A DNA stretch of 64,000 bases, from NCBI GenBank assembly GCA_000004985.1, contig GG738916.1; one strand, 5' to 3'. Shown here one piece after another: positions 4,170 through 50,452 of the stretch (positions within the stretch are counted from its first letter, which is position 1; each line of letters opens with the position of its first letter). Under the pieces are notes generated by a model, which searched no databases, was not told where the DNA came from, and worked only from the letters and a program-made list of their open reading frames with translations. A program made the translations under genes and the position numbers. This DNA is from Naegleria gruberi (Eukaryota).

Positions 4170-6284
4170 TTACTTTTTAACGAAGAGTTTTTGAAGGGAT
4201 TCTTCATTGTTTTGATACATGACTTTACCTCCAACAATGGTCATCAAAATTTTAGTTTCGCGTGTAATGGAATCTAATGCACTTTCGTCTGTTTCGTCCA
4301 ATTCCAAAATATTTCTCGAAAGTATGGTAATATCACCAAGATATCCCTTCTTTAAGGTTCCCACTTCATGTTCAGTAAAACCTGCATAGGCAGAATTTTG
4401 AGTATAGGCAATGAGTGTTTCCTCAATCGAAATCTTTTCTTCTGGAAGGAATGGTTTACAATTCTTTGGATTCTTTGCTTCATTTCTTCTTTCAACGTGT
4501 AATGGTGAAAGACATGGCTTTCTAGTGACAGCTGCATGGATATTATCGAGAATATCGAGAGGAGCAACAAACCAATCAGTTCCCAGAGCTACCTTAACTC
4601 CCTTATTCAGGAATTTTCTGACATTGTACAATTGTTTTTGTCTTTCTCTTATGATACTTTCAGCGTAGAGTGCATCATCCTTGAGATGGATTGGTTGCAT
4701 GGAGGCAATAATATTGTTCTTTTTGAATCTTTCAATATCTTCCTCTCTAATTTGTTGTGCATGTTCAACTCTGAATCTTCTATCTCTGGTCTTATCATTG
4801 GATTCATTAATGACTCTTTCATAGGTATCCAATAAAATCGAAATTGCTTTATCACCAATGGCATGAACAATCACTTGATGATGATTGGCATCAGCTTCTT
4901 TCACACGTTGATAGAAAACCTCTGGATCAACAACCAATAGACCAGTATTATTTTCAGTACCTTCGAATGGTTCAAACATGTAGGCTGTCTTTGAACCTAA
5001 TGAGCCATCCATAAATTCTTTGAGAGCTCCAATCTTGAACCATTCATCACCAGCTCTGCCTCCACTTTTCTCAGTCCAGCAGCAACTATAGTCGAATTCA
5101 TCATTGAGAATGACATGAGATGATTTTGGCTTACTATATTGATTCTTAATGTACTTTTTCAATTTTTGATGAGTTTCCAATTCAACAGAGGCATAAATTC
5201 TAACTTTGAGTTGTTTCTTTTCGTGAAGTTTTGTGAATGTTTTCACTTGATCCCAACTAGCCAAATTGAATACAGAACCCATGTCGTGCACGGAGGTAAT
5301 ACCATTTCTCAAGATTTCATCCATGGCAAGCTTGGCTGCCTGTTCGTTATCTGTTGGTGGAATAATCTTTTGAATAATGTCCAAAGCCCTATCTCTCAAA
5401 ATACCAGTTGGTTCACCTGTGATTGGATCCAAGTCTACAGAACCACCTGTAATTTGAGTATGTTTGGTAATATTTGCCAATTCCATTGCTTTACTATTCA
5501 CTAAACAGGAGTGACCATCCATTCTGGAAAGATAGACAGGATTACTCGATGTGAATGAATCAATCCAATTCTTGTTAGGTAACTTGGTGCCACCCTCAAT
5601 ATTCCACTCAGTTTCAGACCATTCAGCACCTGTAATCCATTCTCCTGCCTTGACACTTCTCTCCTCTATGAATTTCCTAACAGCACCAATAAATTCATCC
5701 TTACTCTTTGCATTTCTCAATTGAACTCCGAGCATTGATTTTCCACCCAAAATTACGTGTGCATGTGAATCGATAAATCCAGGAACTATCAATGGAGTAT
5801 TAACTTCATCACTCGATTTTTGTTTAAAATCCAAAACTGTTTCAGCCATTGATGTTGTAAATCGTGACAATATGTCACTATTACTTCCAATAGCAATAAT
5901 CCTTCCAGTATCCTTATGGACAGCAAGAGCTTCAGCCCACTTGATTGGAATATTCTTTTCTCCCTTTGTTCTTGATGCTTTTGGCACATTTTCCAATTTC
6001 ATTCGATCGCCTGTCCAAATTCTAGCATTTAATATCATGAGGGAAAGGGTTTTTTCATTGCCATTCTGCTGTGATTGACTACCAATCCAATTACTTTTAA
6101 ATACAACATAATACAAGGCAAAGGAAATGATGACGGAAACAATCGGACCGAAATTGTGTAGAAAGGTGGCAATCCTCTTTCTCTTATCACGAGTTTCTTC
6201 ATCAATTAATTCATCGTCCTGTTCTTGTTGCTTCTCCAAAGAAGATTTTTCCTCCTGCATTTTCTTATTTGTTGATTTGGACAT
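4170..6284 (-). CDS. Metal-dependent amidohydrolase (Amidohydro_3-type) with N-terminal TM segment
   Basis: 704-aa single ORF with GFIDSHAHVILGG (HxH metal site), VHAIGDKA, LGTDWFVAPLD and a C-terminal beta-sandwich segment. An N-terminal hydrophobic stretch sits about 40 aa in. Start ATG at 6284. Confidence 0.75.
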   Translation of the reverse strand: MSKSTNKKMQEEKSSLEKQQEQDDELIDEETRDKRKRIATFLHNFGPIVSVIISFALYYVVFKSNWIGSQSQQNGNEKTLSLMILNARIWTGDRMKLENVPKASRTKGEKNIPIKWAEALAVHKDTGRIIAIGSNSDILSRFTTSMAETVLDFKQKSSDEVNTPLIVPGFIDSHAHVILGGKSMLGVQLRNAKSKDEFIGAVRKFIEERSVKAGEWITGAEWSETEWNIEGGTKLPNKNWIDSFTSSNPVYLSRMDGHSCLVNSKAMELANITKHTQITGGSVDLDPITGEPTGILRDRALDIIQKIIPPTDNEQAAKLAMDEILRNGITSVHDMGSVFNLASWDQVKTFTKLHEKKQLKVRIYASVELETHQKLKKYIKNQYSKPKSSHVILNDEFDYSCCWTEKSGGRAGDEWFKIGALKEFMDGSLGSKTAYMFEPFEGTENNTGLLVVDPEVFYQRVKEADANHHQVIVHAIGDKAISILLDTYERVINESNDKTRDRRFRVEHAQQIREEDIERFKKNNIIASMQPIHLKDDALYAESIIRERQKQLYNVRKFLNKGVKVALGTDWFVAPLDILDNIHAAVTRKPCLSPLHVERRNEAKNPKNCKPFLPEEKISIEETLIAYTQNSAYAGFTEHEVGTLKKGYLGDITILSRNILELDETDESALDSITRETKILMTIVGGKVMYQNNEESLQKLFVKK

Positions 6285-8361: not shown

Positions 8362-10464
8362 ATGAAAAATAATTCGCACGACCATCAACATCATCATCAC
8401 GAAGGATGCTCGCACGATCATCATCATCACCACGATGAGAATTGTACTCATGATCATGACCATCAACATCATCATCATGAAGGATGTTCGCATGATCATC
8501 ATCACCATGACGAAAATTGTTCTCATGAACATCATCATCATCACGATGAGAATTGTAGTCATGATCACGACCATGACCATCATCATCATGAAGGTTGCTC
8601 CCACGATCACGGACATCATCATCATCACCATCATGAAGGCTGTAATCATGATCACGATCATGGACATCACCATCATGAAATTCAAATTTTACCATACGCC
8701 AATGAAAAGAATAATAAGAAACATGTCAAAACCTTCTCCCCACTCATGTTGGCATGTTTACAGAATGATACAGCAACAGCATTGTCGCTTTCATCACCAG
8801 AAACAGTCAATGATAGATCAATTGATAATTTCACTGCTCTTCATTTTGCCATGATGAATGGTAATATCGCTCTAGTAGAAAGATTAGTAAAGGATGGTGC
8901 TAGACTTGATAAACGTACTATTACACATGATGGTATGACTCCTCTCATATTTGCTATCAAGGAAAGCCACTATGAATGTGTTAAAAAGTTTTTGGAATGT
9001 GCTAAATTAAAGTTGGAAGAAAATAGTGAATTACAAGAAGGTAAACTCACTATTCAAAAACTTGTCAACCAAGGAAACTTATTAGGAGAAACTCCACTTC
9101 ATCACGTCTGTAAATTGTTTATGCAAATCCCACATGCTCTCCATTTAGCTACCATTCTTATCGATTATGGAGCAAATGTAAATGCCACAGCTGTAGGTCT
9201 TTTAAAGGAGACTCCTCTTTTATATTTTGCTCGTTCCGTTCCTCCTGAAAGTGTCCTTCCAATGATGCAAAATGTTTCTCCCCACGTTTCTGCCCAATTT
9301 AAGAAATTTACTCAACTTTTCGAAACTCACAAGGCAACTTGTATCGAAGAACCAGCACCTGAAACTCCACTCTTACTTTTGGGAACTACTATACCGAAAG
9401 TTATTGTCCCTCCAGGTGTTCCTTCTCAATTATATGCCAACCATAGAGATAGTGCTAACAGAAAGTTGGAAACTGATTACGGAGGTGCCTATTGGAGTTA
9501 TGGCTGTATTGAACCATTCTACCATGGTAAGAAACCAAGAGTTAACATGGCTGTTGATGTCTACATTCCATTCACCAAACCACAAAAAGGTCTTACTGCT
9601 ACCACATTTAATGGATTCATTCATACTATTAATTATGCCAATCCAGAAAAGCCATCCAGAAGATATGAAGATATGGTTGATTTGGAAACTGGTAAGCGTT
9701 TGTCATTTGTTGCTACTTGTACTTTGAATATGAATCATGAGAAATTATCGGATATCTTCCCATCTCAAATGGAAGTCACTATTGAATGGAATCCAGAACA
9801 TAGCAGACATAATCCATGGGTTGTCACCAGAATTTTCGAACATTCTGATGAAAGTAACTCACTTCTTCAATTGGCTCAAGCTGCTTTTGTTTATGAACTT
9901 GAAAATGGTAGATCTGTACTTCCAAACTCAAAGCCACGTCGTTGTACCATGATCAAAGGATTGGAAGATCAACACGGCTCACATAACCACAAGATTCCTG
10001 CTCGTCTTCTTCTTGGAGTTGAAATGTTTAGTCCATATAAGTTTGTTGCTTTCAAATATGCTCCTGATGAATATGATAGTGAAGCTGATGTTCAGCTTAC
10101 TGATGAAACTGGTTTCAACAACATGTTAGGTCAATTAGTTCAAACAAGTGCCGAATTATTGAGACGAGGAAAACCACAATTGGATATCAAAATTGATGGA
10201 AAACTTTTGAATGTGAAAGAAATGATTGAAAATCAATTAAAGAAGAGAATGGAAAAAACTCTCAAAGCCACCCCACCAGCTGTCCAAGAAAAACCAAAAA
10301 CTCCAACTGTTGACAAGTGTGCCAACTGCAACAAGACAGGAACCAAGTCAGCACCTTTGAAGAGATGTTCAGGTTGCCAAAAAGTTTTCTATTGCTCTGG
10401 AAATTGTCAAAAGACACATTGGAGCTCCCACAAGACCGCATGTAAAAAATCAGTAACCAAATAA
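8362..10464 (+). CDS. His-rich N-terminus + ankyrin repeats + C-terminal MYND zinc-finger protein
   Basis: 700-aa ORF. N-terminal 110 aa are tandem (EGCSHDHHHH/HDENCxHDHDH) units. Ankyrin repeats (FTALHFAMMNGNIALVERLVKDGARLD, TPLIFAIKESHYECVKKFLE, TPLHHVCK...) follow. C-terminus has CANCNKTGTKSAPLKRCSGCQKVFYCSGNCQKTHWSSHKTAC, a MYND-type C6HC zinc finger. Confidence 0.7.
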   Translation: MKNNSHDHQHHHHEGCSHDHHHHHDENCTHDHDHQHHHHEGCSHDHHHHDENCSHEHHHHHDENCSHDHDHDHHHHEGCSHDHGHHHHHHHEGCNHDHDHGHHHHEIQILPYANEKNNKKHVKTFSPLMLACLQNDTATALSLSSPETVNDRSIDNFTALHFAMMNGNIALVERLVKDGARLDKRTITHDGMTPLIFAIKESHYECVKKFLECAKLKLEENSELQEGKLTIQKLVNQGNLLGETPLHHVCKLFMQIPHALHLATILIDYGANVNATAVGLLKETPLLYFARSVPPESVLPMMQNVSPHVSAQFKKFTQLFETHKATCIEEPAPETPLLLLGTTIPKVIVPPGVPSQLYANHRDSANRKLETDYGGAYWSYGCIEPFYHGKKPRVNMAVDVYIPFTKPQKGLTATTFNGFIHTINYANPEKPSRRYEDMVDLETGKRLSFVATCTLNMNHEKLSDIFPSQMEVTIEWNPEHSRHNPWVVTRIFEHSDESNSLLQLAQAAFVYELENGRSVLPNSKPRRCTMIKGLEDQHGSHNHKIPARLLLGVEMFSPYKFVAFKYAPDEYDSEADVQLTDETGFNNMLGQLVQTSAELLRRGKPQLDIKIDGKLLNVKEMIENQLKKRMEKTLKATPPAVQEKPKTPTVDKCANCNKTGTKSAPLKRCSGCQKVFYCSGNCQKTHWSSHKTACKKSVTK
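8386..8690 (+). repeat. In-frame tandem nucleotide repeat (about 78-nt unit, 4 copies) encoding His/Asp-rich metal-binding-like tract
   Basis: Repeated cacgatcatcatcatcac...gatgagaattgt...catgatcacgaccat units. The antisense and +1 frames give the spurious His/Met/Ile-rich ORFs 8117..8695, 8314..8685 and 8435..8854. Confidence 0.8.
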
Positions 10465-10557: not shown

Positions 10558-11451
10558 ATGGACGAAGATGTGGAATGGTTCTTGTCGTTGCAAAAATTGG
10601 GATTTTCCAACGAACAAATTGTGGACATGTGGAAGGAAAAGAATAAAGAAGCAATTAGCGAAAATCAAAACAAACAAAAGAAACGAAAAATTGAATTATG
10701 TTTGCACAGTTGTGAGGAAGAACAAATTGGACACAAATTTAATTTTCTGAGTGATGAAGCAATCGGAGTGGTGTTTGCGTTTGTGAATGAGAATTTCTGT
10801 GCATTCCGATTAATGTTGGTGAGTAAACAGTTCGAAAGAGTGGTTGTTTCGTCCATTAAAATATTAAATCTCAATAAGAAGGCAATTCCCAAGATTCCCC
10901 AATTGATAAATTCAAATTTGTGTGAGCCAATTGAGAGATTAATTGTCCACACAGAATTGGAACATTCATTACTGCAACAATTAGTTCACAAATGTGTAAA
11001 TATCAAACATTTAACTGCATCTATTCGAAAGCCACCATTTAACATTTCATTTACGAGTCCAACCATTCAGGAAATTAACATAATAGATGTGCGAGAAACC
11101 AAACCAAAGGTACATTTCGCAAGTGAGAATCTGGAATATTATCCACAACCACAGATACCAAATCCACAACCTAAACCATTGATTCGAACAGATTTATCAG
11201 AATCTAAGATTTTATTGATAAAAAAGTTTGTGGATAATACAATTTTGAAGGATTGCAATCTTGCAAATGAGGAAAACAAAGCTAGAATTCTCAGATGCAT
11301 GATGACCATACCAAATGAGCTAGACGAAACAGAAGAAACATTTCTAATTCATGAGGAAAGAGTTGGAAATGAACTGCATCAAATTTACTTTAATTTCAAA
11401 TATAGCAATTGCAAATGGACTAAAATTTTACAGAAAGAACACATGATTTAA
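10558..11451 (+). CDS. Hypothetical protein with F-box-like motif
   Basis: 297-aa ORF with AAAATG start context. FNFLSDEAIGVVFAFVNENFCAFRLMLVSKQFERVV fits the F-box pattern. Remainder unrecognised. Confidence 0.45.
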   Translation: MDEDVEWFLSLQKLGFSNEQIVDMWKEKNKEAISENQNKQKKRKIELCLHSCEEEQIGHKFNFLSDEAIGVVFAFVNENFCAFRLMLVSKQFERVVVSSIKILNLNKKAIPKIPQLINSNLCEPIERLIVHTELEHSLLQQLVHKCVNIKHLTASIRKPPFNISFTSPTIQEINIIDVRETKPKVHFASENLEYYPQPQIPNPQPKPLIRTDLSESKILLIKKFVDNTILKDCNLANEENKARILRCMMTIPNELDETEETFLIHEERVGNELHQIYFNFKYSNCKWTKILQKEHMI

Positions 11452-11540: not shown

Positions 11541-14500
11541 TTATTGAGTCTGCTTAAACATGGCCAGTTGTTTGTAAACTTTGAGCTTTGTTTGCTCATT
11601 TTCAATTAAACCAACAATCCAAGAAGAAACAGGAATGCTAAAAGCTCTCAAAATTCTTCTAGTCAACAATGCGATATTCAACACTGTAAATCTCTTAATG
11701 AGTCTTCTTGTTGGAGAAACAATTAACAACATTTCAAAGCAATAACCAATAGCCAAATGTGACAATGAATAAATTACTATCCTCAACTTGTAATAGAGTG
11801 GAAAATTAATCAAGCTTATTGCCTGTTTCAATAAATCAGTAGGTATGAAAAGTAAATAAGCTGTTGCCAAATAAATAATGATAATGAAAAGTGTAAAGGT
11901 AACTAATTGGAAATATTAACATCAAACTATTCTTATAATAAACTTACAATTGTTTGTAATGATTGGCAACTTGAATGGTTTTGAAATACTCATACAAATA
12001 GAAATATTGATAATACAGAATGTACACACAAAGAACATTATTGTCGTCTCATAGGAACGCAATAAATCATTCTTATAGTACATAAAGTTTGTGTTAATGG
12101 TTGGAGAGAACCATGGCTCACGCATAATTTCAGTCCAAACATGGAAAATGAAAGCAGAAGCAAGGAGAACGTGACCACCAAGGGAAAGGAAAATAAATCT
12201 GGAAATGAGGGTTGTTGGTGGTTTTTCTCTTTTCAGAGCTAAACTTGCATCAGTTCTCGTCATTAACAAGGTTGTTGGCATGACTACAATTAAATCAATA
12301 AATAAAAATTGAAAATCCACAAAATTACAATTTCTAGAGAGTAAGACAACAATTGTCATGATTTGAACAATAGAATAGAGGGCAATGAATTTGAAAATTT
12401 GGAAAAAGGTAAGTAAGCTTGCTCTACCTTCACGAATAACTGTAACCATTGAACCGACAGTTGGTTTCAAACTAGTGAATGGTGCTGCGACTGATATTTC
12501 TTCTGAAAGGGAAATACCAACATGGGCCGATCTGAGAGCACCCAAATCGTTGGCACCATCTCCAATCATACCTACGTCATATCCCATTTTTTGAAGTTCT
12601 GTCACTAGGGTTTTCTTATGATTAGGCGAAAATCTGGCATAAATATTGCATGATGTAAGAATGATATGAAGTAGAGAAGGTCTCTTAGTGTTAATGTATG
12701 GCTCTCTTCTGGTTTTCTTTACGAATAATCGATGTTCATTGTGTACATATTCAAACACCTCCCCAACAACTACAATGTCAATATTACGCAACTTGAGCAG
12801 CTCTTCTGTAGTAATTACTTGTCCACTCTCTGTTTGTCTCCACATGATATTCTGAATATAATCCACATTGGAGACTATTTCTCTCTTCAATTCACTCAAG
12901 TAACAATCCTTCTTTTTTTCAATAACTTTTGACTTTCTGGCAACATTTATGGAAGTGTATGCATTGTCACCACTACAAATGATGCACTTGATATTACAGT
13001 CCAATAATGTTTTGATGGATTTTGAAGTTCCTTTCTTTACCTTGTTTTCTACCAAGAGTAGACCAATAAATTCCATTTCTGATTCTACATATTCTCTTGG
13101 AAGGGTTTCCAACTCGGATAAAGTGAGATTGCTTGGTAATGTTTTACTGGCCAGTGCCATAACTCGATAGCCCTTCTGAGCATAACATTTCAACATGTCA
13201 GAGTAATTTGGAGGAATTGAGGATGGTTTAGAAATGGACTTGACAGATTCAGCACTACCTTTAGCAAATGCGTGTAAATTTCCAGTTGCATTATTCTTAA
13301 TTACTACAGACATTCTCTGAACTGAGCTCTTGAAATCAAAAACATTCAATTTAGAATAGGATTTCTCAACCTTCTGATCTGTTGACTCAAAGAATATTGT
13401 ATGACCATAAGCTGACTCGGAAATATCTTGCATGGACCACTTGCTAGTCTGGAATAATTTAGAATCCAAAGGATCACCAATAAAAGTTGTACCAACTCTA
13501 CTAAGATTGTTACAACATGCCAAACATTGAACCAATGTGCTATTAGAAGCAAATAATTTCGAAATGTTAGTTCCCTTGACATATGGATGAAAGAGACCTT
13601 CAACGGATGGGAAAATTCCATGAACATCTATTTCATTCTCGGTTATTGTGTTGGTCTTGTCAAAAACTGCAATTTTGACATATCCAGGAAGGTTAACTCG
13701 TAATGGTGAAGTACACAAAATCTTCCTCTTTCCCAATCTTCTCATAGTAAATGTTATTGTTGTTGTCATGGCCAATGGCAGGGTAGGAGGCACACTAATA
13801 GTGATAATATCTAGAATGTGTAAAAAGACATTTCCAGCTGGTGCTCCCAATTTGAATAGATTTGCAGCTGTTCCAATAATTCCAATAAATCCAGTCACTA
13901 CTAATACAATTAAGAATTTGAGAGAATCTCTATAAACATTAAACTCTGCAGTCTTTGGGAATAGAATTGATAAGAGTAATTTTCCTTTCAGAGTATTGAA
14001 TCCTGTTTGACTCACAATACCAAAGCATTTGTTTGCGAATAGACTGTTAGGAGAAGGTTTGGCTGTCAAAACTTGCGTTCCAGAAAATATTGTGTGATTA
14101 TTCTCTCTAGAAGGGTAATATAACTTGGCGTCATCATAGGGCAGTGGCCTCTTCTTGACTGGAATACTGTCACCTGTTAATTTTGATTCATTAACAATAA
14201 CTTGACCACCCAACAAAATAACATCACAAGGCAATGTCATACCATCAGTAATTTCAATAATATCTCCAGGGAATAAATCGAGAGAGTCCATTTCTTCCTC
14301 CTCTTCATTTCTCTTACTAGCATTCTCTTCTGAATAGATTGTTCTATTATATTTAGATGGTGCTCTCAGTGCAAGTCTATTTACAAAGCAATGATTCGAA
14401 GTCAAGTCCTTCAATTTTTTCAAATTATCATATGTTCTCCAAAAACTGAATGATATAACTATCAGAGTAACTATTGCTATTGAAATGCAATAAGTGTAAT

Positions 14501-15875
14501 ATTGTTCCAAAAACCAAAGCACAAGGATGAATACTTGGAAAAGGTAGAATGGATGTAAAATTTCATCTAATAGAATTTGTACTCCTGATTTCATTGGAAT
14601 TTCCGTAGAATTTTTACCAAATAGTAACTCTCTCAATTCTCTTTCATTTTCTGCTTCCTTTTCAGCCATTTTGTGAATTTTAGAAAATGGAATACATGTG
14701 TTAAATCTAACCCTGTGAAAACTATCCGTCACAGGATCATATATAAATACTAGAAATCTATATACAAAATATCGCACCATGATAGGTTCAAACGAAACTC
14801 TCAAATCCGAATCAAAATTCCTCACAAATCCTTTCTTAATTTTTACAATCGTCCACTGGTTTGTCTCCTTCGCCTTGATTAATACCTTTGAAGCATCAGC
14901 AAAGGAGTGACCATTGTTACTACTATACGAATAGGTCATGTATGATTTGAGCCATTTTAGCCACCGACAGCAAACCAACAATGAACCAGCACTCGCAACT
15001 ACACACAACCAAAACAATACTTCCAAGTAGAATTGATGCCTCAGTCCTTTTATCGAGGCAATTTCATGAACATACTTGCTTTGATTATCCAAATATTCTT
15101 CCTCTGGAGCATGTGAAAAATCCGAATCATCGTCAGGATCTTCAAAATGGAGTGAGAGGGAAGTTCTATGGAAGTGTGTATTTGGTTGAGTGGAAAATGA
15201 GAGTGGTGAGGAAGGATTTTGTTCGTCGTCATCAGAATGTGCAACAATTGGCTCATCCACATGTAACTGTTGTTGATGAGAAGCAGCTGCTCCTGGTGGC
15301 ACTGTAGCTTGTTGATGATGTGGTTTTTGCCTACTAGTAAGTGTGGAACTTCCCGATGATGTATACTCATTCAAAATTGCTTGCAAACTTGTTGATTGTT
15401 GCTTCTTGATGTGATGATGATGACTAAACTTATTCAATGAATAACTACTATTACTCGGACTAATTGGTGTTGGAGGATTTAAAGTGGGTGGAGAGTAGGA
15501 AACATTATAGTCTTCAATGAGAACCTCCTCCATATTACTACTACTATTATCATTGTCCACATGTTGGCGATGATTTGAATTATTAGTGAAGGAAGATAGT
15601 GAGTGAGGAATGATAACACTCACACTCTCCAAATCATCCAGACTACCACTACTACTACCCATATTCATATTCATATTATTATTTTGTTCTTCATCATTAT
15701 GAAACCTTTCATCTTCATCTATTGTTGATAATGTCGATTCATTCATCATTGCACTCTCGGAATCTACTCTAAATAAATTATTGTTGTTATTATTATTATC
15801 TTTGTTGTCGTTGTTATTATCAATGGCCAATTGATGAAGAGAATCATCCGAGCCTACAACATTACTATTCTTCAT
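11541..15875 (-). CDS. P5-type (P5B/ATP13A-like) P-type ATPase with variant catalytic motifs; one 3' intron
   Basis: Exons 11948..15875 and 11541..11902, with intron about 11903..11947 (minus-strand GTAAGT...TTAG, 45 nt). The intron joins the track ORFs 11922..15875 and 11541..11870 into one protein whose hydrophobic C-terminal helices continue. Motifs are PPTLPLAMT (P5 PPxLP), GDGANDLGAL (hinge), DKTNT where DKTGT is expected, and TGDS where TGES is expected. There are about 10 TM segments. N-terminal about 300 aa are poly-N/Q/S low complexity. Confidence 0.8.
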
Positions 15876-16232: not shown

Positions 16233-16859
16233 TTATTGATTTTGACAAGTGGATTCTGGAACTGGGAATGAAAAATCAGAGGCACTTGATTGTCCCATAA
16301 TATTAAAAGTAGTAATTAAAGTTGGTTGACCATCTCCAATAATCTTGTACATTTGGAGTGGAAGTTGGAAAGCTCCAGTATGATTAGTATTGATATAATA
16401 ATCGATCACCATATTGGTAACAACTTTGTTATCATATCTATCACAAGTTCCAATTTTTTGAGTCATGATATTCAAGCAATTATTAACAATTCCAGTATAT
16501 TGCATTCCAGAAATAATGGCAGATCTCAATGGATCCATAGCCAAATTATGCATTCCAGCATTTTTACGTCTAGTACAAGTCCACTTTCCATTTGAATATT
16601 CAGTAAAGGCATAGAAAGTATCAACAGATTGAACATAGAAATAGGATTCATGGAAACCTTGTGGAGTAACAACTTTATGAGAGAAGAGACCCTTGTTATG
16701 ATTGGCAGCAACTTGAGTTTGGAAAATCTTGTTCTTTACATAATCATTTTGGATCATGGTGTAATCGTCAGGTAAATACAAAGATGGATCGGAGGAAACT
16801 ACTCCGATGATGATCATCAGTGTGATGAAGAGAATGATGGAAGCTTTGCTTGTTTGCAT
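16233..16859 (-). CDS. Hypothetical secreted protein (signal peptide, Cys-containing)
   Basis: 208-aa ORF. N-terminal MQTSKASIILFITLMIIIGVVSS signal-like segment. No recognisable domain. Confidence 0.45.
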   Translation of the reverse strand: MQTSKASIILFITLMIIIGVVSSDPSLYLPDDYTMIQNDYVKNKIFQTQVAANHNKGLFSHKVVTPQGFHESYFYVQSVDTFYAFTEYSNGKWTCTRRKNAGMHNLAMDPLRSAIISGMQYTGIVNNCLNIMTQKIGTCDRYDNKVVTNMVIDYYINTNHTGAFQLPLQMYKIIGDGQPTLITTFNIMGQSSASDFSFPVPESTCQNQ

Positions 16860-17683: not shown

Positions 17684-19384
17684 CTAATTCTGATTTTCTC
17701 TCAAGAATCTTGAAATATCCGAATTGGCTTGAGTCAAACGATGCATTACATCAGATAAATCCTGAATACAATGCAATTCCAATCCATCAAATAGAGTGGA
17801 GGGTAAATTCTCATCTCCACACTTTTCAATTTCAATCATTAGGTCAGAACGTGCTTTCTCAATGGATGCCATATTCAATTCAAGAGGAGAATTCAAAGAA
17901 ATATAATTATCAATAATAAATTTGGCAATTTCCTTTCGATTTTTGACTTGTTGTGGAGATTTGTATCTTTGAATATCTTGCCAACAAAGTACAGGTTCAG
18001 GACAATAGGATCTTCTCGCAAAATCCAATAAAATATTGAATGTCTTTCTGTTTTTCAGAACTAGCTCTGCACCACTTATCACTTCCTTTTTTGATTCCTC
18101 TACTGAAACTGATTTCAAATTATTCCAAGCAATTTTCAATTCCTGATTGAGTTCATAACAAACAGGCAATAGTACACACACAACAGTCTCCAAAGAAAGT
18201 GCTGTGCACATAAAGAGCAAATAGGGCACATAATAATCGATCAATGATCCAACAATTGGTATAAAACCAGCTACAATAAAAGCTCCCATTCCAATCGATT
18301 GAATCACCACATAAATCAATGATTCCTTCTTAATATTCCATGTATCTCTATCTGATCTGATACATAAAATCAATGTAAATACCTCCATGGCAATATAAAT
18401 AATTGCCTCTGTCAAGATTATTCCAAGAATACTACTAGTCATGATACATCCATAACCAGACTCAAAGAAACCAGCTGGAATGAGAGCTCTTTTTGCTGAA
18501 GGATCTGTTTTCTTATTGATTGTGTAGACAATTTCATCAATTCCACCAACAATGGCCCATAAAATAGTTTGAAATACGAAAACTCCCAAATAAACCAAAA
18601 TGACGAAAGAGTGACTGCCCATAAATTGGAAGAATTTCATTTTCCTCAGTTCTTTCATTGGAATTTCAATCTCACGATTGGAAATGGATTCTTTTGCATC
18701 TATGAAAACAACTTCATTAGTACTGGTTGAGGATTGTAAACTTGTTGGTGTGTCCAGTGGTGTATCCACAGGTGTGGCTGATTTTGGAGATGAAGAAGTG
18801 GTTGAAATTGAAGAATGAAACAATTCTTGATGTGGCATTCTAATAGTTGATGGTAATTCCTTTTCGTCTACATTACTCTGCTCATCCAAATGTCCATAAA
18901 GTTTCGTCTTTTGTAAATTAAACTTGTACATGAAATACAACTTTAAACATCGACAAATTGTCGGCAAACAAATCACAGGTCCAGTTACAAAGAAACACCA
19001 AGAATAAAGCGAACAAGGAAATTGCTTTCGTCCAATAATTATTCGAAGGCAAAATATTGCCACAAAGAATAAACCTGAAAACATGGTCAAGAAGAGATGT
19101 GATAAATTTCTCGCAACAACATGTCCTGAATTTCTCTTCCACAAAATCAATATCGAAGTGACAACCAATAAGCTTACATATAATATTAGAAAGGTCAACA
19201 CGACACCAAACGAAACTGTTGTATCAGGACAAATATCGTAATCTTGATTGGGATTGGCTTCTCGGCTGTATGGTGTTGTGAAGAGTGTTGGATCGCAAAA
19301 AGTTGAATTATTGCTGCTCGACGAGTTATTCGATTGTGATTCGTATAGAATGTGAAGAATCGAATAAAAGAGTTGATCTGTCAT
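17684..19384 (-). CDS. Multi-pass membrane protein with C-terminal RGS (regulator of G-protein signalling) domain
   Basis: 566-aa ORF with about 7 hydrophobic helices followed by an RGS-like segment (FNILLDFARRSYCPEPVLCWQDIQRYK...EIAKFIIDNYISLNSPLELNM). Confidence 0.65.
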   Translation of the reverse strand: MTDQLFYSILHILYESQSNNSSSSNNSTFCDPTLFTTPYSREANPNQDYDICPDTTVSFGVVLTFLILYVSLLVVTSILILWKRNSGHVVARNLSHLFLTMFSGLFFVAIFCLRIIIGRKQFPCSLYSWCFFVTGPVICLPTICRCLKLYFMYKFNLQKTKLYGHLDEQSNVDEKELPSTIRMPHQELFHSSISTTSSSPKSATPVDTPLDTPTSLQSSTSTNEVVFIDAKESISNREIEIPMKELRKMKFFQFMGSHSFVILVYLGVFVFQTILWAIVGGIDEIVYTINKKTDPSAKRALIPAGFFESGYGCIMTSSILGIILTEAIIYIAMEVFTLILCIRSDRDTWNIKKESLIYVVIQSIGMGAFIVAGFIPIVGSLIDYYVPYLLFMCTALSLETVVCVLLPVCYELNQELKIAWNNLKSVSVEESKKEVISGAELVLKNRKTFNILLDFARRSYCPEPVLCWQDIQRYKSPQQVKNRKEIAKFIIDNYISLNSPLELNMASIEKARSDLMIEIEKCGDENLPSTLFDGLELHCIQDLSDVMHRLTQANSDISRFLRENQN

Positions 19385-21258: not shown

Positions 21259-22389
21259 ATGCAAACTGTATTCAAAACTGTGGCATTTGCTGTCATCCTT
21301 CTTACATTTCTCATCACCTCTTGTGCTGCCTCTGTAAAGATTTTAACATCAACAACAAGAATCAAGCCAGATCAAATCATGGAGATTGATATTAATCGTT
21401 CTGGCTATGTTGATCAAGTCATTCCATTCAGTATGAAACAACAGGAAGGTTACTTTATTGTTGCAAGTGGTCCGAATCAAATTCACAGTGTAGATTCGTC
21501 CAATCATGTGGATTCCTTCATGTTGAATATTGCAATGAGCTCTAAATGGATGACAATGGGAGTTGTTGAGACATGTGTTGGTGGTTTATTCACACCACAA
21601 TACAATTTGTTGAATCTTGTTTATTCTGGTGAGGAATTGGGCAAATCATATATTGTTCAAGTCAACTTGAAGAATTTAACACAAATTGTTGAGGTGATTT
21701 CACTTGGAGCTAACAGTCAAGTAATTGATGTTCACGAAAATCGTGAATTAAGTGTTTTGCACATTCTTGTAAAGAAGGCTCAATCTCTTTCACTTTTCAC
21801 ATTCGATCCAAAGAATAATTTACTGAGAGAGCAAGGTTATCCATTGATGACCACTGGAAAAGTAGCATTCATGAAAGATACAGGTATTTTTGTTGGTATT
21901 GGAAACTCAACCTATTCACATTTGTTGTTGGTTGACCCGTATTCATTGAAAATCATTGATGGACAAGATTTGGATTCTTTTGGAATTTTCAATATCCAAT
22001 CATTGAGCTGCTTCAATTCAATGATTAGTATTGTCTACTCCAAGTTTGCAACTCGTAATATCGTTTATCGTTATGAAGCTGCCTCAAAAGCTCTCTACTC
22101 CATGGGTGGATTATTCTATGCAACAATTAAGAGATTTTCCAATTGTGAAATGTTCAGCGATCAAGCAAAGGTTGTTTGTGTGAATAATAATAGAGAAATT
22201 GTGAAAGTTCCAATATCGTCGAATGAGGAAACAAATTATTATCCAATAGAATCTGCTGAGAATGATTTGTCTAAGGCTTTTACTCAGATGGATGATGAAG
22301 GTCAATTGTTGCTCTATATTCCACAAAATTATGCAACTGATGATGGCTCATTTAGAATTGCTGTTTATAATTATGCTAAATTTGAATAA
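21259..22389 (+). CDS. Hypothetical secreted protein
   Basis: 376-aa ORF with AAAACATG start. N-terminal signal peptide (VAFAVILLTFLITSCAAS). No recognised domain. Confidence 0.5.
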   Translation: MQTVFKTVAFAVILLTFLITSCAASVKILTSTTRIKPDQIMEIDINRSGYVDQVIPFSMKQQEGYFIVASGPNQIHSVDSSNHVDSFMLNIAMSSKWMTMGVVETCVGGLFTPQYNLLNLVYSGEELGKSYIVQVNLKNLTQIVEVISLGANSQVIDVHENRELSVLHILVKKAQSLSLFTFDPKNNLLREQGYPLMTTGKVAFMKDTGIFVGIGNSTYSHLLLVDPYSLKIIDGQDLDSFGIFNIQSLSCFNSMISIVYSKFATRNIVYRYEAASKALYSMGGLFYATIKRFSNCEMFSDQAKVVCVNNNREIVKVPISSNEETNYYPIESAENDLSKAFTQMDDEGQLLLYIPQNYATDDGSFRIAVYNYAKFE

Positions 22390-22437: not shown

Positions 22438-25400
22438 TTAAAAGAGAGGATAATTTAGAAGGTTCGATCTCTCGCAAACAATCTCGGGAGGTGTCTTATT
22501 CATTCTAGATCTGTAGACCTCCCTTAGATCGTCAATACTTGAAACACCTGTAAAAGTTGTTGTAACTCTAGGTACAAAATACAATCTCAATCGTTTTAGT
22601 TTTTGAAGTTGAATGACAAAATTGAGTAGACTTTGATAGGACAAGTCTTTTGTTCCTCTTCCAAAAATTTCAACATCTCTCAATTCTGTACATTTTTCTT
22701 CCAATCTTTCGAAAAAGTCTCTGGTTGGATTGTTACCATCCAATTCAATGTAGAGTGAATTCAATTTGTGATAACATCGCAAGGTATCCAATAATTCTGG
22801 AATTTCTTCATTGGAAAATTTGTAGTTGTGAATGTGGAAAGATTTGAGGTTGTGACATAACCTCTCGCTTGCGGTAAATTCATTCTTCCAATCCAAAGCT
22901 TTGATATTTACAGGTTTGTCAATTATTAAACATGTTAAACTGTGGGAATGATACTCGTAAATGGTCTTTAAAATAGAAAGACTGAAGAATTGAGAATTGT
23001 TCTTCAGAATAATATGGGAAAGTGAGGGAGGGAAAAATAGGGTAGTTCTAGGTTTTCTGGAGGATAGAGAAGTGTCGGAACGAGATTTTGGTATGATATT
23101 AATTTCACTCGTGCTAATGCTGGAATCGGATGATTTCTTGGAAAGTGTTGGGTTGTTAAATTTTCCACTGGCTGCTTTAAATAATTTGATAAAACTTGCC
23201 TCGATTTCATCTATTGGAACAGCATCATTCTTTTGGTTGGAAACAGTAATGGATCTCAAACTAGGGAAGGAAAAGAGTGTAAACAGGATATTGAATATAG
23301 TGGCCGAAGTTTTGTTAAATGTCAAACTCTGAACTTTGAAACATCTCAAAAGCTTTTCATTATTAATTAATGTAAAGTCATTAGATTGAACTTGATTAAT
23401 TTCGGAAGACTCGACAAGTGTCATGAAGGTATGTACTGATGGAGTTCCACTGGAAATGTGATCAGACAATGAAAAACTCTTCAACGATTTCCTAAATAAA
23501 TATAAAATTTGTGCAATTAAAGTATCAGATATGGAGCAGTTAGAAATCTCCAAATATTCCAAAATATGGGAACTGGTGAGTAAGTTGAAACATTTTGGAT
23601 TGAGAGTGTTATCTATTTTTTTGGTTGTAATATTTGTCATTTTCAGATTTCTTAGAGAAGGACAAATGGCCAATGTTTCAATCAGAGTGGTTTCATCGCT
23701 GATCATGTAGTGGTCAATTGTCAATTTGGATAATTTTTCGAATTTTCCTTGAGGGAACCCTAAGAATGCATAGTCTAGTATGGCCTTTTCACAAGTTGAC
23801 AATAGATAAACCTCTCTCAATGATTTGGTATGATGTCGTAAGATCTTTAGCACACCAGATGTGACATCAACTGAGCCGTTCTGAGTGTGACGGAAGTATT
23901 GGAGAGTATTTTTACATCCCAGCACGAAAGATTGATCAGCCAATCCTCCAGAAAGTATAAATGACCAATCAGTTGCTGCTCCATGATCTACAGTGGAAAG
24001 TCGTGTTAACATTGGAAATAGTACAATAGGATTAGAGCACGTCTGCTTCTTGAGATACTGCAACAATTGTTGGAATAGTGTATCAGATTCAGTACTGGCC
24101 TTATGTTGATAAAAATCTATTGATTGAAGATGAGAACTCTTGAGCCTGTTCAAGAATTTTTCAATGACTTGACTTTCGTTGGAGAGGGAGTGAAAAAGCT
24201 TGGAAGCAAGTTTGGATGTATTTCCAACCACAACGCCACTACTCAGGTTCATAGGTAGTGTGGATATTGCTCCGTTAAATGAAATTGATTTGAGTTTTGG
24301 AAAGTCTTGAATAATATCTACTTGATCCAAAAATCCATGTGGCACCAATCCTCCAATTGTGAGATGAGTCAATCCCTTTTTCAAATGCTCCAAAGGTTGC
24401 AGAGAGTCAATTGTATTACTTCCAGTAGTTACTCCATCAAATACTACCTTTAAGGAAACCAGTGAGGTTGTTAATTTCAATAGAGAATTTAGCTCTCCTT
24501 TCTTTTTTGGTAAGTAATTGAGAAGATTCAGCTCTCTAATTCTAGGAAGTAAGCTTTCAAAGTTTAAAAGATTCAGATTTTGATCTTCAACATTTGGGCT
24601 GGTATTGATGGTTATCTCTGGGTCCTGACCTGTTGCCATTAGTTTGGAAAAAAAGCTACTCGATGCTGTTTTCAAATTTGGGAAAATCGAGTCAAAAGCA
24701 AAGGTTTTCGTAAAAGTCAAACTTAAACGAGTAATATTCTTAAAAATTCCAATTTGAATCAAACTCTTTCTAAAGCTACTAATAACACTATCCACTAGAA
24801 TTTCATCTCCAAAATATCTCAAATCAAAAGTATTAAAATCAATCAAATATTGTTGAATTCCGAGTTCATTAGCCATATCCATATCCAAAGAAATTTTCTT
24901 ATCCATGAAATCAAACTTTGAAAGGTACTGTGTGAATTCATTGTGTGCAGAGTTTGTTCTGACCATTCTTGGAGTATTCGCTTCTGACCTTGGCGTGGTT
25001 ACACTAGTTGGAGTATCTCTACCTCTTGGTGTGATGGTTTGAGAACGAGATTGTTTAGTCGGTGTGGAGGGAACTGACTTTTTCTTATCTTCCCCATTCC
25101 TAGCCATTTCCACAAGTGTTTGAATCAGGAATTGAAATGTTGATTTTTTCAATCGGTTCTTTAATGATTTTCCATCACTCATACCATTGATTATACTCGT
25201 ATTGTTACTATTGTGTTGATGATTACTAGGTGTATTGGATGATGATGACAATGACGAAGATGACACATTAATAGAATTATCAATAGCATATTCCAATCCA
25301 CCTCCCACAATGTACAAAGTTACCAGAACTGATAACCACTTACTCGACAAGATCTCCTTCATCAATGTCTTATCATCCATGAATGACATGATTTGATAGT

Positions 25401-25686
25401 GAATTTCCAGAGGAAGTTTGGAAAATAAATTTCTAAACCTAACAACGGCCTGGCTCGCATTGATATTAACCAATCCAGGTGTATGTTCTCTACTCGATGG
25501 TAGAATCTTCCGAATTGGAGAATCAGCATTAAAATCCCTGAAAAAGTCATCATATAAATTTTGTAGTGAATTGTTGAAAATTATGGTTTTTGATGAGGAG
25601 TCATCTTGATGATTCGGATGTTGATGACCATTCTTTTGATCTATTGTAGAAGATAAATCTTTCCTATTATTATTATTATTTTGCAT
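22438..25686 (-). CDS. Large F-box / leucine-rich-repeat protein
   Basis: 1082-aa ORF. N-terminal region has LPLEIHYQIMSFMDDKTLMKEILSSKWLSVL (F-box) after a poly-N/S tract. Long LRR-like L-x-x-L-x-L repeats run through the rest. Confidence 0.55.
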   Translation of the reverse strand: MQNNNNNRKDLSSTIDQKNGHQHPNHQDDSSSKTIIFNNSLQNLYDDFFRDFNADSPIRKILPSSREHTPGLVNINASQAVVRFRNLFSKLPLEIHYQIMSFMDDKTLMKEILSSKWLSVLVTLYIVGGGLEYAIDNSINVSSSSLSSSSNTPSNHQHNSNNTSIINGMSDGKSLKNRLKKSTFQFLIQTLVEMARNGEDKKKSVPSTPTKQSRSQTITPRGRDTPTSVTTPRSEANTPRMVRTNSAHNEFTQYLSKFDFMDKKISLDMDMANELGIQQYLIDFNTFDLRYFGDEILVDSVISSFRKSLIQIGIFKNITRLSLTFTKTFAFDSIFPNLKTASSSFFSKLMATGQDPEITINTSPNVEDQNLNLLNFESLLPRIRELNLLNYLPKKKGELNSLLKLTTSLVSLKVVFDGVTTGSNTIDSLQPLEHLKKGLTHLTIGGLVPHGFLDQVDIIQDFPKLKSISFNGAISTLPMNLSSGVVVGNTSKLASKLFHSLSNESQVIEKFLNRLKSSHLQSIDFYQHKASTESDTLFQQLLQYLKKQTCSNPIVLFPMLTRLSTVDHGAATDWSFILSGGLADQSFVLGCKNTLQYFRHTQNGSVDVTSGVLKILRHHTKSLREVYLLSTCEKAILDYAFLGFPQGKFEKLSKLTIDHYMISDETTLIETLAICPSLRNLKMTNITTKKIDNTLNPKCFNLLTSSHILEYLEISNCSISDTLIAQILYLFRKSLKSFSLSDHISSGTPSVHTFMTLVESSEINQVQSNDFTLINNEKLLRCFKVQSLTFNKTSATIFNILFTLFSFPSLRSITVSNQKNDAVPIDEIEASFIKLFKAASGKFNNPTLSKKSSDSSISTSEINIIPKSRSDTSLSSRKPRTTLFFPPSLSHIILKNNSQFFSLSILKTIYEYHSHSLTCLIIDKPVNIKALDWKNEFTASERLCHNLKSFHIHNYKFSNEEIPELLDTLRCYHKLNSLYIELDGNNPTRDFFERLEEKCTELRDVEIFGRGTKDLSYQSLLNFVIQLQKLKRLRLYFVPRVTTTFTGVSSIDDLREVYRSRMNKTPPEIVCERSNLLNYPLF

Positions 25687-27881: not shown

Positions 27882-27954
27882 TCCCCCTTAGCTCAGTCGG
27901 TAGAGCGTCAGACTGTTAATCTGCAGGTCGGTGGTTCGAGCCCACCAGGGGGAG
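27882..27954 (+). tRNA. tRNA-Asn (GTT)
   Basis: 73-nt cloverleaf: acceptor TCCCCCT/AGGGGGA, D-arm AGCTCAGTCGGTAGAGC, anticodon stem CAGAC/GTCTG?-like with loop CTGTTAA (anticodon GTT), T-arm GGTGGTTCGAGCCCACC. No encoded CCA. Confidence 0.9.
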
Positions 27955-28117: not shown

Positions 28118-29473
28118 ATGATGAAGATTTACAAAAAAATGTCAGACTTGTTGATGTTTCACAGCCACGATTTAACTGATCAATTACCAACAGAAATGTT
28201 GTTAGAAATATTTTCCTTCCTCCATTCAAAATTCCGCCTCCTAACGCTTTCTCTCGTTTGTAAAAAGTGGAAGTTTCTATCGCTCACCAAAACGAAATTT
28301 AATGTTGAATTTAAAGGTGCAAAATCATCAACATTTATTAATAATGCACTATTTGAAATTGATCGGCAGCAGCTACTTGTAGATAAATTGGAATTTGGTG
28401 AAAACCCAGTTTCTCAAGCAACATTGGAAATTGTTGAAAATTTAAGAACAAGTTTACAATATTTAAAATGTCTTGTTCCTATTGATGAATTGCGGTTTAT
28501 TATTAATCAATTTTCAAATTTAAAATCTCTTGATATCAGAAGATCTAAATTATCTGATAATTCAATTTGTCATGAATTAATGAATAGCAAATTGTCATTA
28601 CCTAATTTAGTAGAATTGAAAATTGAAAATGAATTTAATAATGCAAAAACAGGTGATCATTCAATTAAAGCACAGCTTGTTTCCTTGACGATTGATGGTC
28701 CTAAAACGTATGGACGTATGTTCAAAATTAGGAAACCAGTTGTTGCTAATTTAGAATATCCAAATTTGAAAAAATTGGAACTAATTGACGTTGTTATTGA
28801 AAGTAGAACCTTGCCAATCGGTTTGAAATCACTTGCATTGATTGGATGCGATGTGAATTTCATAGAATTTGAAAGAGTTTCTGAAAGTTTAGAAAAATTA
28901 GAAATTAACCTTGTTACTACTGATGATGTTAATTTTTTACAAAAATCTAATTTAAAGAATTTAAAGAAATTAAAGATTACTAATCAGGATTTAACATTTT
29001 GGGAGAAATTAGAGAAGGTTTATCAAGATGAGTGGAAAGCTTTTACTTTAACAAGTTTTACCTTTGATAGAAATTATTCCAAAACGGTAAAAAAATTATG
29101 TAACTTGGATCTGTTAACAAGTTTAGACATTAGCAATGGCAAAATTTCATCCAATGATGTTATTGATCTTCTTAATGAATGTGAAATGAAAAATTTAACA
29201 AAATTGAAAGCTCAAAATTGTTCACTTTCTCAAGAAGTAATTCCAATTATAGAGAAAATGAAATCATTGAAATATTTGGACTTGAGTTTAAATTCATCAA
29301 TGAAAGATTCTGAAAGAGAGATTATTTGTGGAATGGAAATTGATTATATTGATTGTGGTGGAAAAAACTTCGATGAAATGAAAGAAACTAATGTTGAATT
29401 TTTAGATTCACTTTCGAATATTTCAATTTTTGAACCTAGAAAGAGCATTGAAATTTTGGAAACCAAAAATTAA
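28118..29473 (+). CDS. F-box / LRR protein
   Basis: 451-aa ORF. LPTEMLLEIFSFLHSKFRLLTLSLVCKKWKFLSL is a canonical F-box. It is followed by LRR-like repeats (LKSLDIRRSKL, LVELKIENE, LKKLELIDV, LKYLDLSLN). Confidence 0.6.
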   Translation: MMKIYKKMSDLLMFHSHDLTDQLPTEMLLEIFSFLHSKFRLLTLSLVCKKWKFLSLTKTKFNVEFKGAKSSTFINNALFEIDRQQLLVDKLEFGENPVSQATLEIVENLRTSLQYLKCLVPIDELRFIINQFSNLKSLDIRRSKLSDNSICHELMNSKLSLPNLVELKIENEFNNAKTGDHSIKAQLVSLTIDGPKTYGRMFKIRKPVVANLEYPNLKKLELIDVVIESRTLPIGLKSLALIGCDVNFIEFERVSESLEKLEINLVTTDDVNFLQKSNLKNLKKLKITNQDLTFWEKLEKVYQDEWKAFTLTSFTFDRNYSKTVKKLCNLDLLTSLDISNGKISSNDVIDLLNECEMKNLTKLKAQNCSLSQEVIPIIEKMKSLKYLDLSLNSSMKDSEREIICGMEIDYIDCGGKNFDEMKETNVEFLDSLSNISIFEPRKSIEILETKN

Positions 29474-29626
29474 TTTGATATTGATAAGAAATTCAGTTTA
29501 TTGATTAAGGAAATTCATGGAATTACAAACAGACACAATCAATTCAAATCAAGGAAATATTTTTCCTATTCAGTAGAATGTTCAATAGTTTCCAATAGGA
29601 AAAGTTCAGAAATTCACTCGACAAGA

Positions 29627-44167: not shown

Positions 44168-44238
44168 TGCGTCGACCGGGAATTGAACCCGGGTCACGGC
44201 GATGGCAACGCCGTATTCTACCACTAAACCATCGACGC
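44168..44238 (-). tRNA. tRNA-Gly (GCC), canonical copy
   Basis: Minus strand GCGTCGATGGTTTAGTGGTAGAATACGGCGTTGCCATCGCCGTGACCCGGGTTCAATTCCCGGTCGACGCA. Anticodon loop TTGCCAT. Intact T-stem CCGGG/CCCGG. Confidence 0.9.
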
Positions 44239-49950: not shown

Positions 49951-50452
49951 TCATTAGTTATTCATTAACAACATTTTATGATAGATATCAAGAAGCGTCG
50001 ATGGTTTAGTGGTAGAATACGGCGTTGCCATCGCCGTGAATAGGGTTCAATTCCCGGTCGACGCATAAATTATTTTCCATTTCAACATTCTTTCATTTTC
50101 TCTTTTTCAACTTTATACCACTAAAACTAGACATTTATTACTATCTCTACTCCAAAAATCACATCTTTAAAATCAATATTCATCGAGAAAGAAACCTCGG
50201 TTTTTACCCCATTTTTTCTTTCATTTTATTAAAAGATAAATTTGGTGAACTTTGTAAAACTCAAAAAAAATGTCTGAAATCGATAAACAACCAAACCTTC
50301 AATCAAAAACTTCTACCCATCCTCTTTTTGCATTCCTTCGTGATTATTCCATCATAGGTGGTGCTCATCTCTGCTCTGTAACTTTCACTGCTCCTCTACA
50401 TAGAGCAATAGATGTTATTACAAATTTCGAGAAAGATCACAATATTCTGGAA
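49951..50452. repeat. Right arm of about 500-bp inverted repeat (carries variant tRNA-Gly and promoter/exon 1 of carrier gene)
   Basis: Reverse complement of 43772..44283. Confidence 0.85.
49995..50065 (+). tRNA. tRNA-Gly (GCC), variant/possibly impaired copy
   Basis: Identical to the 44168..44238 copy except the T-stem 5' strand. ATAGG replaces CCGGG (GTGAATAGGGTTCAATTCCCGG), weakening 2 of 5 T-stem pairs. Confidence 0.75.

Follow-up and report, generated by a model that had tools for sequence, protein, structure and literature searches.

A proposed DKTNT subfamily of P5B-type ATPases in vahlkampfiid amoebae and a member in Naegleria gruberi

The stretch of DNA analysed here, referred to as the window, comprises 64,000 nucleotides of contig GG738916.1 of the Naegleria gruberi assembly GCA_000004985.1, and carries on its minus strand (15875..11541) a gene for a P-type ATPase in which the phosphorylation motif reads DKTNT instead of DKTGT and the dephosphorylation motif TGDS instead of TGES. 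A preliminary description, made from the sequence alone, had drawn attention to both substitutions, and the comparative analysis reported below places the gene in a set of P5B ATPases, all with DKTNT, that we propose as a new subfamily. The gene contains one intron of 45 nt and encodes, according to its spliced translation, a product of 1429 amino acids (aa); the list of open reading frames (ORFs) divides it into a frame of 1317 aa (11922..15875) and a second frame (11541..11870), both on the minus strand. As had been supposed, removal of this single 3' intron connects the last transmembrane (TM) helices in frame. The intron position is common to three species, with lengths of 45 nt in N. gruberi, 69 nt in Naegleria fowleri and 40 nt in a metagenomic orthologue, and the protein encoded by exon 2 is kept in the orthologues. 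The spliced product is identical to the NCBI/UniRef N. gruberi protein P0001, 'cation translocating P-type ATPase'; the window is therefore nuclear DNA of N. gruberi, and the gene model is that of the public annotation, which is generic only. A low-complexity N-terminal tail is present as described, with a measured length of 269 aa rather than about 300 aa. The positions of all features are collected in Table 1.

The P5B ATPases are the family of ATP13A2 and Ypk9, polyamine exporters of lysosomes, and a P5B-like identity of the N. gruberi protein had been proposed; sequence profiles, matches to solved structures and fold comparison all agreed on it. Pfam searches returned PF00122 (E1-E2_ATPase) at 5e-30, PF13246 (Cation_ATPase) and PF00702 (HAD), with the P5-ATPase N-terminal domain below threshold (17 bits against a cut-off of 22.7). 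The NCBIfam profile TIGR01657 ('ATP13A2 family polyamine export P-type ATPase') matched end to end (aa 277-1353, profile positions 8-1054 of 1055) with 797.9 bits against a cut-off of 618.25, and TIGR01494 matched with 205 bits against a cut-off of 62; when aligned by hhalign to canonical P5B sequences, the alignment began at the first residue of the core/N-terminal domain. Among solved structures, HMMER gave human ATP13A2 as the best match (E 2e-152), followed by the P5B-ATPase chains of 7op1/7op3/7op5 (3.6e-138), whereas the P5A proteins Spf1 and ATP13A1 reached only about 3e-71. An AlphaFold2 model of aa 271-1309 (predicted local distance difference test score 83.6, predicted TM-score 0.80) was structurally closest to ATP13A2 in its E1-ATP and E1P-ADP states (TM-score 0.84, root-mean-square deviation 3.7-3.8 Å), and Foldseek ranked P5B (6.7e-70 at 30% identity) above P5A (1e-53 at 22% identity). 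The motif of the fourth TM helix (M4) is PPTLPLA; among 383 aligned P5B sequences, PPALP occurs in 341, PPSLP in 21 and PPTLP in four. P5A ATPases have PP[D/E]LPxE at this place, and P5B ATPases a PPALP-type motif without acidic residues (PMC10654040). Its M4 motif and its scores in sequence and structure comparisons led to the rejection of a P5A identity, and the protein is confirmed as a P5B ATPase.

Both unusual motifs stand at the catalytic positions. An HMMER alignment to human ATP13A2 placed TGDS on TGES and DKTNT on DKTGT, in agreement with the 383-sequence P5B alignment. The codons are AAC for Asn742 and GAC for Asp569, and not aat and gat as first given. The PROSITE signature PS00154 of P-type ATPases is D-K-T-G-T-[LIVM]-[TI], and the N. 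gruberi gene does not match it: its sequence is DKTNTIT, in which only the Gly is replaced, while Asp, Lys, the two Thr residues and the I-T behind them are all kept. [quoted passage not shown] Further deviations are SGDN for TGDN, KGSAE for KGxPE, GALR for GALK and AMTTT for AMTVG. PPTLP and GDGANDLGAL are both present, as had been observed, and Asp739 is the predicted phospho-acceptor.

The substitutions recur in orthologues. The closest relative is N. fowleri FDP41_006673 (XP_044558776, 1316 aa; ORF call P0002), in which TGDS and DKTNT were found in two independent sources, the NCBI genome and a Sequence Read Archive (SRA) assembly. Its neighbours, encoding F-box, MYND/ankyrin and amidohydrolase proteins, also flank the N. 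gruberi gene, with counterparts at 22477-25575, 8680-10443 and 4173-6206 respectively, and because of this shared synteny the two genes are considered orthologous. A third, Naegleria-like orthologue, from metagenome ERZ27315067, has NGDS, DKTNT and SGDS. Across the three orthologues the codons differ synonymously (AAC/AAC/AAT for Asn and GAC/GAC/GAT for Asp), and a change from GGN to AAC requires two base changes. The proportion of synonymous differences (pS) between the three coding sequences is about 0.75, which is saturated, and the proportion of nonsynonymous differences (pN) in the core is only 0.22-0.26, giving a ratio of nonsynonymous to synonymous substitution rates (dN/dS) of about 0.07 or lower that is meaningful as an upper bound only, since synonymous sites are saturated. 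These values show strong purifying selection on the core and bear out the earlier argument that the gene is not a dead pseudogene.

Members of the group were collected from a canonical-seeded search, a full HMMER scan of 1.84 billion representatives, and cluster names. Nine proteins with DKTNT were found, in three paralogous lineages (A, B and C), each with Naegleria and Willaertia members. Lineage A consists of the N. gruberi gene, N. fowleri FDP41_006673, the metagenomic ERZ27315067 copy and Willaertia ABK040_007605; the other five proteins are N. gruberi XP_002676123, N. lovaniensis C9374_013664 and C9374_007801, and Willaertia ABK040_004402 and ABK040_013478. All nine form one clade in a neighbour-joining (NJ) tree, with 100% bootstrap support. 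Canonical P5B proteins (TGES, DKTGT, KGSPE, TGDN) coexist with them, namely N. lovaniensis C9374_008682, Willaertia magna ABK040_000112 and the partial N. gruberi XP_002679695. Metagenome ERZ27315067 likewise contains both a lineage-A gene (with NGDS and SGDS) and a canonical P5B gene of a Naegleria-like organism. Word-indexed searches had returned four DKTNT proteins and no canonical Naegleria P5B, and the idea that the N. gruberi gene is the sole P5B of its lineage was disproved by the canonical-seeded search and the HMMER scan.

Residues were counted in the 383-sequence alignment, in which 367 to 372 canonical proteins have a residue at the relevant columns. The third position after the phospho-acceptor (D+3) is Gly in 367/367 canonical P5B proteins and Asn in all nine DKTNT proteins. 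The Glu of TGES is present in 372/372 canonical proteins and in the six DKTNT proteins outside the Naegleria branch of lineage A, so that Glu to Asp is confined to the Naegleria members of that lineage; neither substitution occurs in any canonical P5B of the alignment. Three near-invariant columns, whose changes define the group, are altered in 9/9 members. The D+3 Gly has become Asn (G742N), Ala or Ser takes the place of Pro in KGxPE, and at aa 706, the cytoplasmic end of M4, a Gly has given way to Thr, Leu, Cys or Ser. The canonical frequencies at these columns are G 100%, P 99.2% and G 96.8%, and the N. gruberi protein has N742, A875 and T706. On these comparisons the nine proteins are proposed as a new P5B group, of which the N. 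gruberi gene appears to be the most derived member. The group was seen only in vahlkampfiid Heterolobosea (Naegleria and Willaertia), a range limited by database sampling; among the matches examined, Acrasis and Percolomonas had canonical copies only, and the animal P5B proteins sampled included no DKTNT-type sequence. The DKTNT variant is new in the sense that it is not described in the literature searched, where the term gave only an unrelated abbreviation and where no paper linked Naegleria with P5B.

Most likely, the subfamily arose by duplication of the canonical P5B of the vahlkampfiid lineage, and its split into paralogues A, B and C most likely predates the divergence of Naegleria and Willaertia. 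An origin from the lineage's own P5B is suggested by pairwise identities and shared derived states: Willaertia A, the slowest-evolving member, shows 48.5-49.9% identity to the vahlkampfiid canonical P5B, a level equal to that with its Naegleria orthologues, and both types of paralogue have AMTT in M4 and ARF(S/T)P, states that are unique to this lineage in the sample. From the distribution of the substitutions, Gly to Asn came first, before the three duplications and the Naegleria/Willaertia split. Glu to Asp arose afterwards on the stem of the Naegleria members of lineage A, a branch on which this lineage also evolved faster. Some species then drifted further: the metagenomic copy acquired T567N and has SGDS for TGDN, and N. 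gruberi has SGDN.

Every other catalytic residue, including all those for phosphoryl transfer and for the binding of Mg-ATP, is invariant in 9/9 members. [quoted passage not shown] In ATP13A2 spermine is bound by W251, D254, D463, D960, F963 and D967 (PMC8564547), and their N. gruberi equivalents are W454, E457, D689, D1187, F1190 and D1194, five of them identical and one, at D254, a conservative change. In lineage C, represented by P0260 (N. lovaniensis C9374_007801) and P0271 (Willaertia ABK040_013478), the D463 equivalent is Val or Ile, and P0260 has Ile at the D254 equivalent, which suggests a different substrate pocket in this lineage. Both proteins have KGSSE. In P0259 (Willaertia ABK040_004402), M4 reads PPSLI, with the third Pro of PPxLP lost. 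As to rates, lineage A outpaces the canonical paralogue by a factor of about 1.5 to 2: the identity between Willaertia and Naegleria is 47.5% for lineage A against 68% for the canonical copy.

The N-terminal tail is poorly conserved (pN about 0.47), two islands excepted. In the three Naegleria orthologues these follow the patterns PPTP(I/L)SP(S/T) and (I/V)KKQ(Q/H)xT(S/T)(L/I)QAI(L/I)NEY, and Willaertia has SLQNILSKY. Ypk9 possesses an auto-inhibitory N-tail that touches both TGES and the nucleotide pocket; the islands could form a regulatory or auto-inhibitory segment of this kind, or could be proline-directed phosphosites.

The surroundings of the gene are included in Table 1. Pfam gave no match for the 297-aa ORF, and the corresponding gap on the N. 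fowleri contig showed no counterpart of it. Between the ATPase and F-box genes lie about 6.5 kb with extra ORFs in N. gruberi, whereas the two genes are adjacent in N. fowleri.

Table 1. Positions in the window of the parts of the ATPase gene and of the other genes and ORFs
Feature	Position	Strand	Remarks
ATPase, exon 1	11948..15875	-	aa 1-1309 and first base of codon 1310; ATG 15875-15873; from ORF list and identity to P0001
ATPase, intron	11903..11947	-	45 nt; GTAAGT...TTAG, in-frame stops inside; removal joins both ORFs in frame
ATPase, exon 2	11541..11902	-	aa 1310-1429; last TM helices and C-terminal tail; stop codon 11543-11541
Low-complexity N-terminal tail	15069..15875	-	aa 1-269
N-tail island PPTPISPS	15476-15453	-	aa 134-141; conserved
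N-tail island IKKQQSTSLQAILNEY	15410-15363	-	aa 156-171; conserved
P5-type N-terminal domain	14601..15068	-	aa 270-425; membrane-dipping hydrophobic hairpin; TIGR01657 match, hhalign
M2 segment LWFLEQYYTY	14490..14519	-	equivalents of ATP13A2 W251, D254 (Glu here), Y256, Y259
A-domain dephosphorylation motif TGDS (canonical TGES)	14166..14177	-	aa 567-570; Asp569 codon GAC at 14171-14169
ILDIIT with Asp689	13817-13800	-	equivalent of ATP13A2 D463; just upstream of PPTLP
M4 motif PPTLP	13776..13790	-	aa 696-700; P5B type, no acidic residues
P-domain phosphorylation motif DKTNT (canonical DKTGT)	13647..13661	-	aa 739-743; Asn742 codon AAC at 13652-13650
N-domain motif KGSAE (canonical KG[AS]PE)	13248..13262	-	Pro replaced in all nine DKTNT proteins
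P-domain motif SGDN (canonical TGDN)	12963..12974	-	from alignment
P-domain Mg2+-site motif GDGAND	12546..12563	-	intact; followed by LGALR (CGALK in canonical P5B); GDGANDLGAL aa 1105-1114
M6 segment VDFQFLFID	12294..12320	-	equivalents of ATP13A2 polyamine ligands D960, F963, D967
Amidohydrolase	4170-6284	-	syntenic with N. fowleri
MYND/ankyrin protein	8362-10464	+	syntenic with N. fowleri
297-aa ORF	10558-11451	+	between MYND gene and ATPase 3' end
Extra ORF	16233-16859		in the ~6.5-kb gap
Extra ORF, RGS domain	17684-19384		in the ~6.5-kb gap
Extra ORF	21259-22389		in the ~6.5-kb gap
F-box protein	22438-25686	-	syntenic with N. fowleri
tRNA-Asn(GTT)	27882-27954	+	
F-box/LRR protein ORF	28118-29473		
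PI3K accessory and C2 domain fragment	29501-31216		
Brr2/SNRNP200-type spliceosomal helicase	36774-43661	+	uninterrupted 2295-aa ORF; two DEAD and Sec63 cassettes
Two tRNA-Gly(GCC)	44168-44238, 49995-50065		on opposite strands, ~5.8 kb apart
ADP-ribosylglycohydrolase ORF	51209-53164		

Altered kinetics and a non-pumping paralogue, the two alternatives raised in the preliminary description, remain the two live hypotheses. We favour, with modest confidence, the reading that the N. gruberi gene encodes an active, autophosphorylating P5B-type pump that is strongly derived and whose cycle is slowed or retuned. From the residues kept and replaced we infer that the protein would still bind Mg-ATP, would form the aspartyl-phosphate on Asp739, and would still accept a polyamine-like polycation in the pocket of M2, M4 and M6. 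With its phosphorylation site remodelled, closure of the N-domain, the passage from E1P to E2P and the hydrolysis of E2P would proceed with changed kinetics, and a slower cycle with a longer-lived phosphoenzyme is the likely outcome.

For the Glu to Asp change there is a precedent. E2P is hydrolysed by a water molecule that the TGES Glu orients and activates, and the loop shields the aspartyl-phosphate (PMC11468904; PMC8233418). In the SERCA variant E183D, E2P was formed from inorganic phosphate and hydrolysed at about one third of the wild-type rate, and the E1P to E2P step ran at less than 10% of wild type (PMC2268108). For the Gly to Asn change a comparison is offered by PfNIF4 of Plasmodium, a HAD phosphatase described as functional, whose motif I is DLDNT, with Asn at D+3 (PMC9426563). 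Given this Asn, the Gly is not required for the aspartyl-phosphate chemistry as such. In the HAD fold, as Burroughs et al. 2006 reportedly set out, the chain just behind motif I runs into the element that gives rise to the cap; here the cap would be the N-domain, and the D+3 side chain together with the KGxPE change could plausibly alter its closure.

Several points weigh against an active pump. SERCA E183D showed no significant Ca2+ uptake (PMC2268108), and for mutagenesis of the DKTGT glycine (G354 in SERCA) the searched literature gave nothing usable. Among the 144 columns with a conservation of 97% or more in other P5B proteins, lineage A deviates at 17-25; the other P5B proteins deviate at no more than 14 of them, with a median of 0. 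The N-domain (aa 766-955, ~13010-13577) is the least constrained part, with 47% identity between N. gruberi and N. fowleri against 63-74% elsewhere, whereas the N-domain of the canonical paralogue is as conserved as the rest (73-86%). In the metagenomic orthologue the drift has gone further and produced NGDS and SGDS. Finally, the root of the subfamily cannot be placed reliably by the NJ tree, which was built without a P5A outgroup: midpoint rooting puts the DKTNT stem at the root, a position that is not trusted because this stem is long.

A non-pumping paralogue, or pseudo-pump, would retain the fold of a P5B ATPase and might go on binding a ligand or nucleotide, but without a productive Post-Albers cycle, and beside a canonical P5B it would act as a sensor, regulator, scaffold or phosphorylation-locked switch. 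We regard this, the main rival, as possible, though on the unlikely side. It would account for the replacement of two residues at positions where 367-372 canonical P5B proteins show no variation, for the many further changes near the phosphorylation site (SGDN, KGSAE, LGALR), for an N-domain that is the most relaxed of the domains, and for catalytic motifs still drifting in one orthologue; it also fits the lack of significant transport by SERCA E183D, and the canonical P5B proteins of the same genomes could carry the ancestral function. Pseudoenzymes usually lack the nucleophile or metal ligands. Such typical losses are not what the subfamily shows: the residues for phosphoryl transfer and for binding Mg2+ and ATP are strictly kept in nine proteins of three old lineages, the substrate-pocket residues are kept in lineages A and B, and purifying selection is strong over the whole core. 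A search of the literature for degenerate or pseudo P-type ATPases gave nothing relevant.

The subfamily could also represent a naturally re-engineered catalytic site, in which a long-lived phosphoenzyme serves as an ATP-set switch, or in which transport is very slow and gated, and which is not a conventional pump; we advance this as a tentative idea that is improbable as it stands. The D+3 Asn, the KGxPE change and the M4 changes would then retune N-domain closure and phosphoenzyme stability, and the later Glu to Asp change in the Naegleria lineage would be coupled to them, compensate for them or slow the cycle further. If this were true, two of the most 'invariant' residues of P-type ATPases would be dispensable in the right context, and the subfamily would be a natural model for their roles.

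Still less probable, in our view, is an active ATPase with a changed job, either a new substrate, such as another organic cation or a metal, or a new regulation, for instance coupling through the N-tail motif. Changes in the pocket can be cited for it: lineages A and B have Glu for D254, three of the four lineage-A members have Asn for D960, eight of the nine proteins have Tyr for F963 (the N. gruberi gene keeps Phe), and lineage C is without equivalents of D463 and D254. The conserved N-tail islands, moreover, recall the auto-inhibitory N-tail of Ypk9. However, the spermine ligands of the N. gruberi protein are identical at five of six places and conservatively changed at the sixth, and canonical P5B proteins that have a residue at the column in question also show Glu at D254 (58 sequences), Asn at D960 (27) and Tyr at F963 (52). 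That the AAC and GAC codons are sequencing or assembly errors, or the locus a recent pseudogene, has only the rarity of the substitutions in its favour and is extremely improbable; it was rejected on the comparative data, namely the same residues in N. fowleri (two sources) and the metagenomic relative, the Asn in Willaertia and five further paralogues, the two base changes required, an intact frame of 1429 codons with a conserved intron, and the low dN/dS.

Compared with known systems, by sequence and predicted structure, the N. gruberi protein resembles ATP13A2 and Ypk9 in its P5 N-terminal domain, its PPxLP M4 motif without acidic residues and its catalytic residues other than the substitutions, at an identity of about 30-36%. 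It differs from them by DKTNT for DKTGT, TGDS for TGES, SGDN for TGDN, KGSAE for KGSPE and PPTLP for PPALP, and by its 269-aa low-complexity tail. Its closest relative outside the subfamily is the canonical vahlkampfiid P5B paralogue of the same genomes (about 40-49% identity), which shares AMTT and ARF(S/T)P but has TGES, DKTGT, KGSPE and TGDN and evolves more slowly. Lineages B and C have DKTNT and KGS(A/S)E in common with the N. gruberi gene and, like it, no Gly at the end of M4; unlike it, they keep the Glu of TGES. HAD phosphatases such as Plasmodium NIF4 have the aspartyl-phosphate chemistry, the fold of the catalytic core and the Asn at D+3 in common with it, but are soluble, with Asp at D+2, no N- or A-domains and no transport cycle. 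Kil2 of Dictyostelium is reportedly (Lelong et al. 2011) a phagosomal P5B ATPase of a bacterivorous amoeba and is said to have canonical motifs; as a P5B paralogue in a phagotrophic amoeba it hints at a possible phagosome or lysosome context. In SERCA1a E183D, from Clausen, Andersen and co-workers, Glu is likewise replaced by Asp in the phosphatase loop of the A-domain; it is an engineered variant of a P2A Ca2+ pump, whereas the Naegleria change is natural, conserved and accompanied by other changes at the site.

DKTGT and the Glu of TGES define the P-type ATPases and serve as invariant reference points of the superfamily, and the DKTNT subfamily amounts to an experiment of nature in which the steps of phosphorylation and dephosphorylation have been mutated. 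It could show which parts of the catalytic site are obligatory and how the docking of the N- and A-domains is tuned. Motif filters such as PROSITE PS00154 will miss real members of the family. The DKTNT protein of the pathogen N. fowleri (FDP41_006673) may offer a selective target if the handling of polyamines by P5B pumps is essential in these amoebae.

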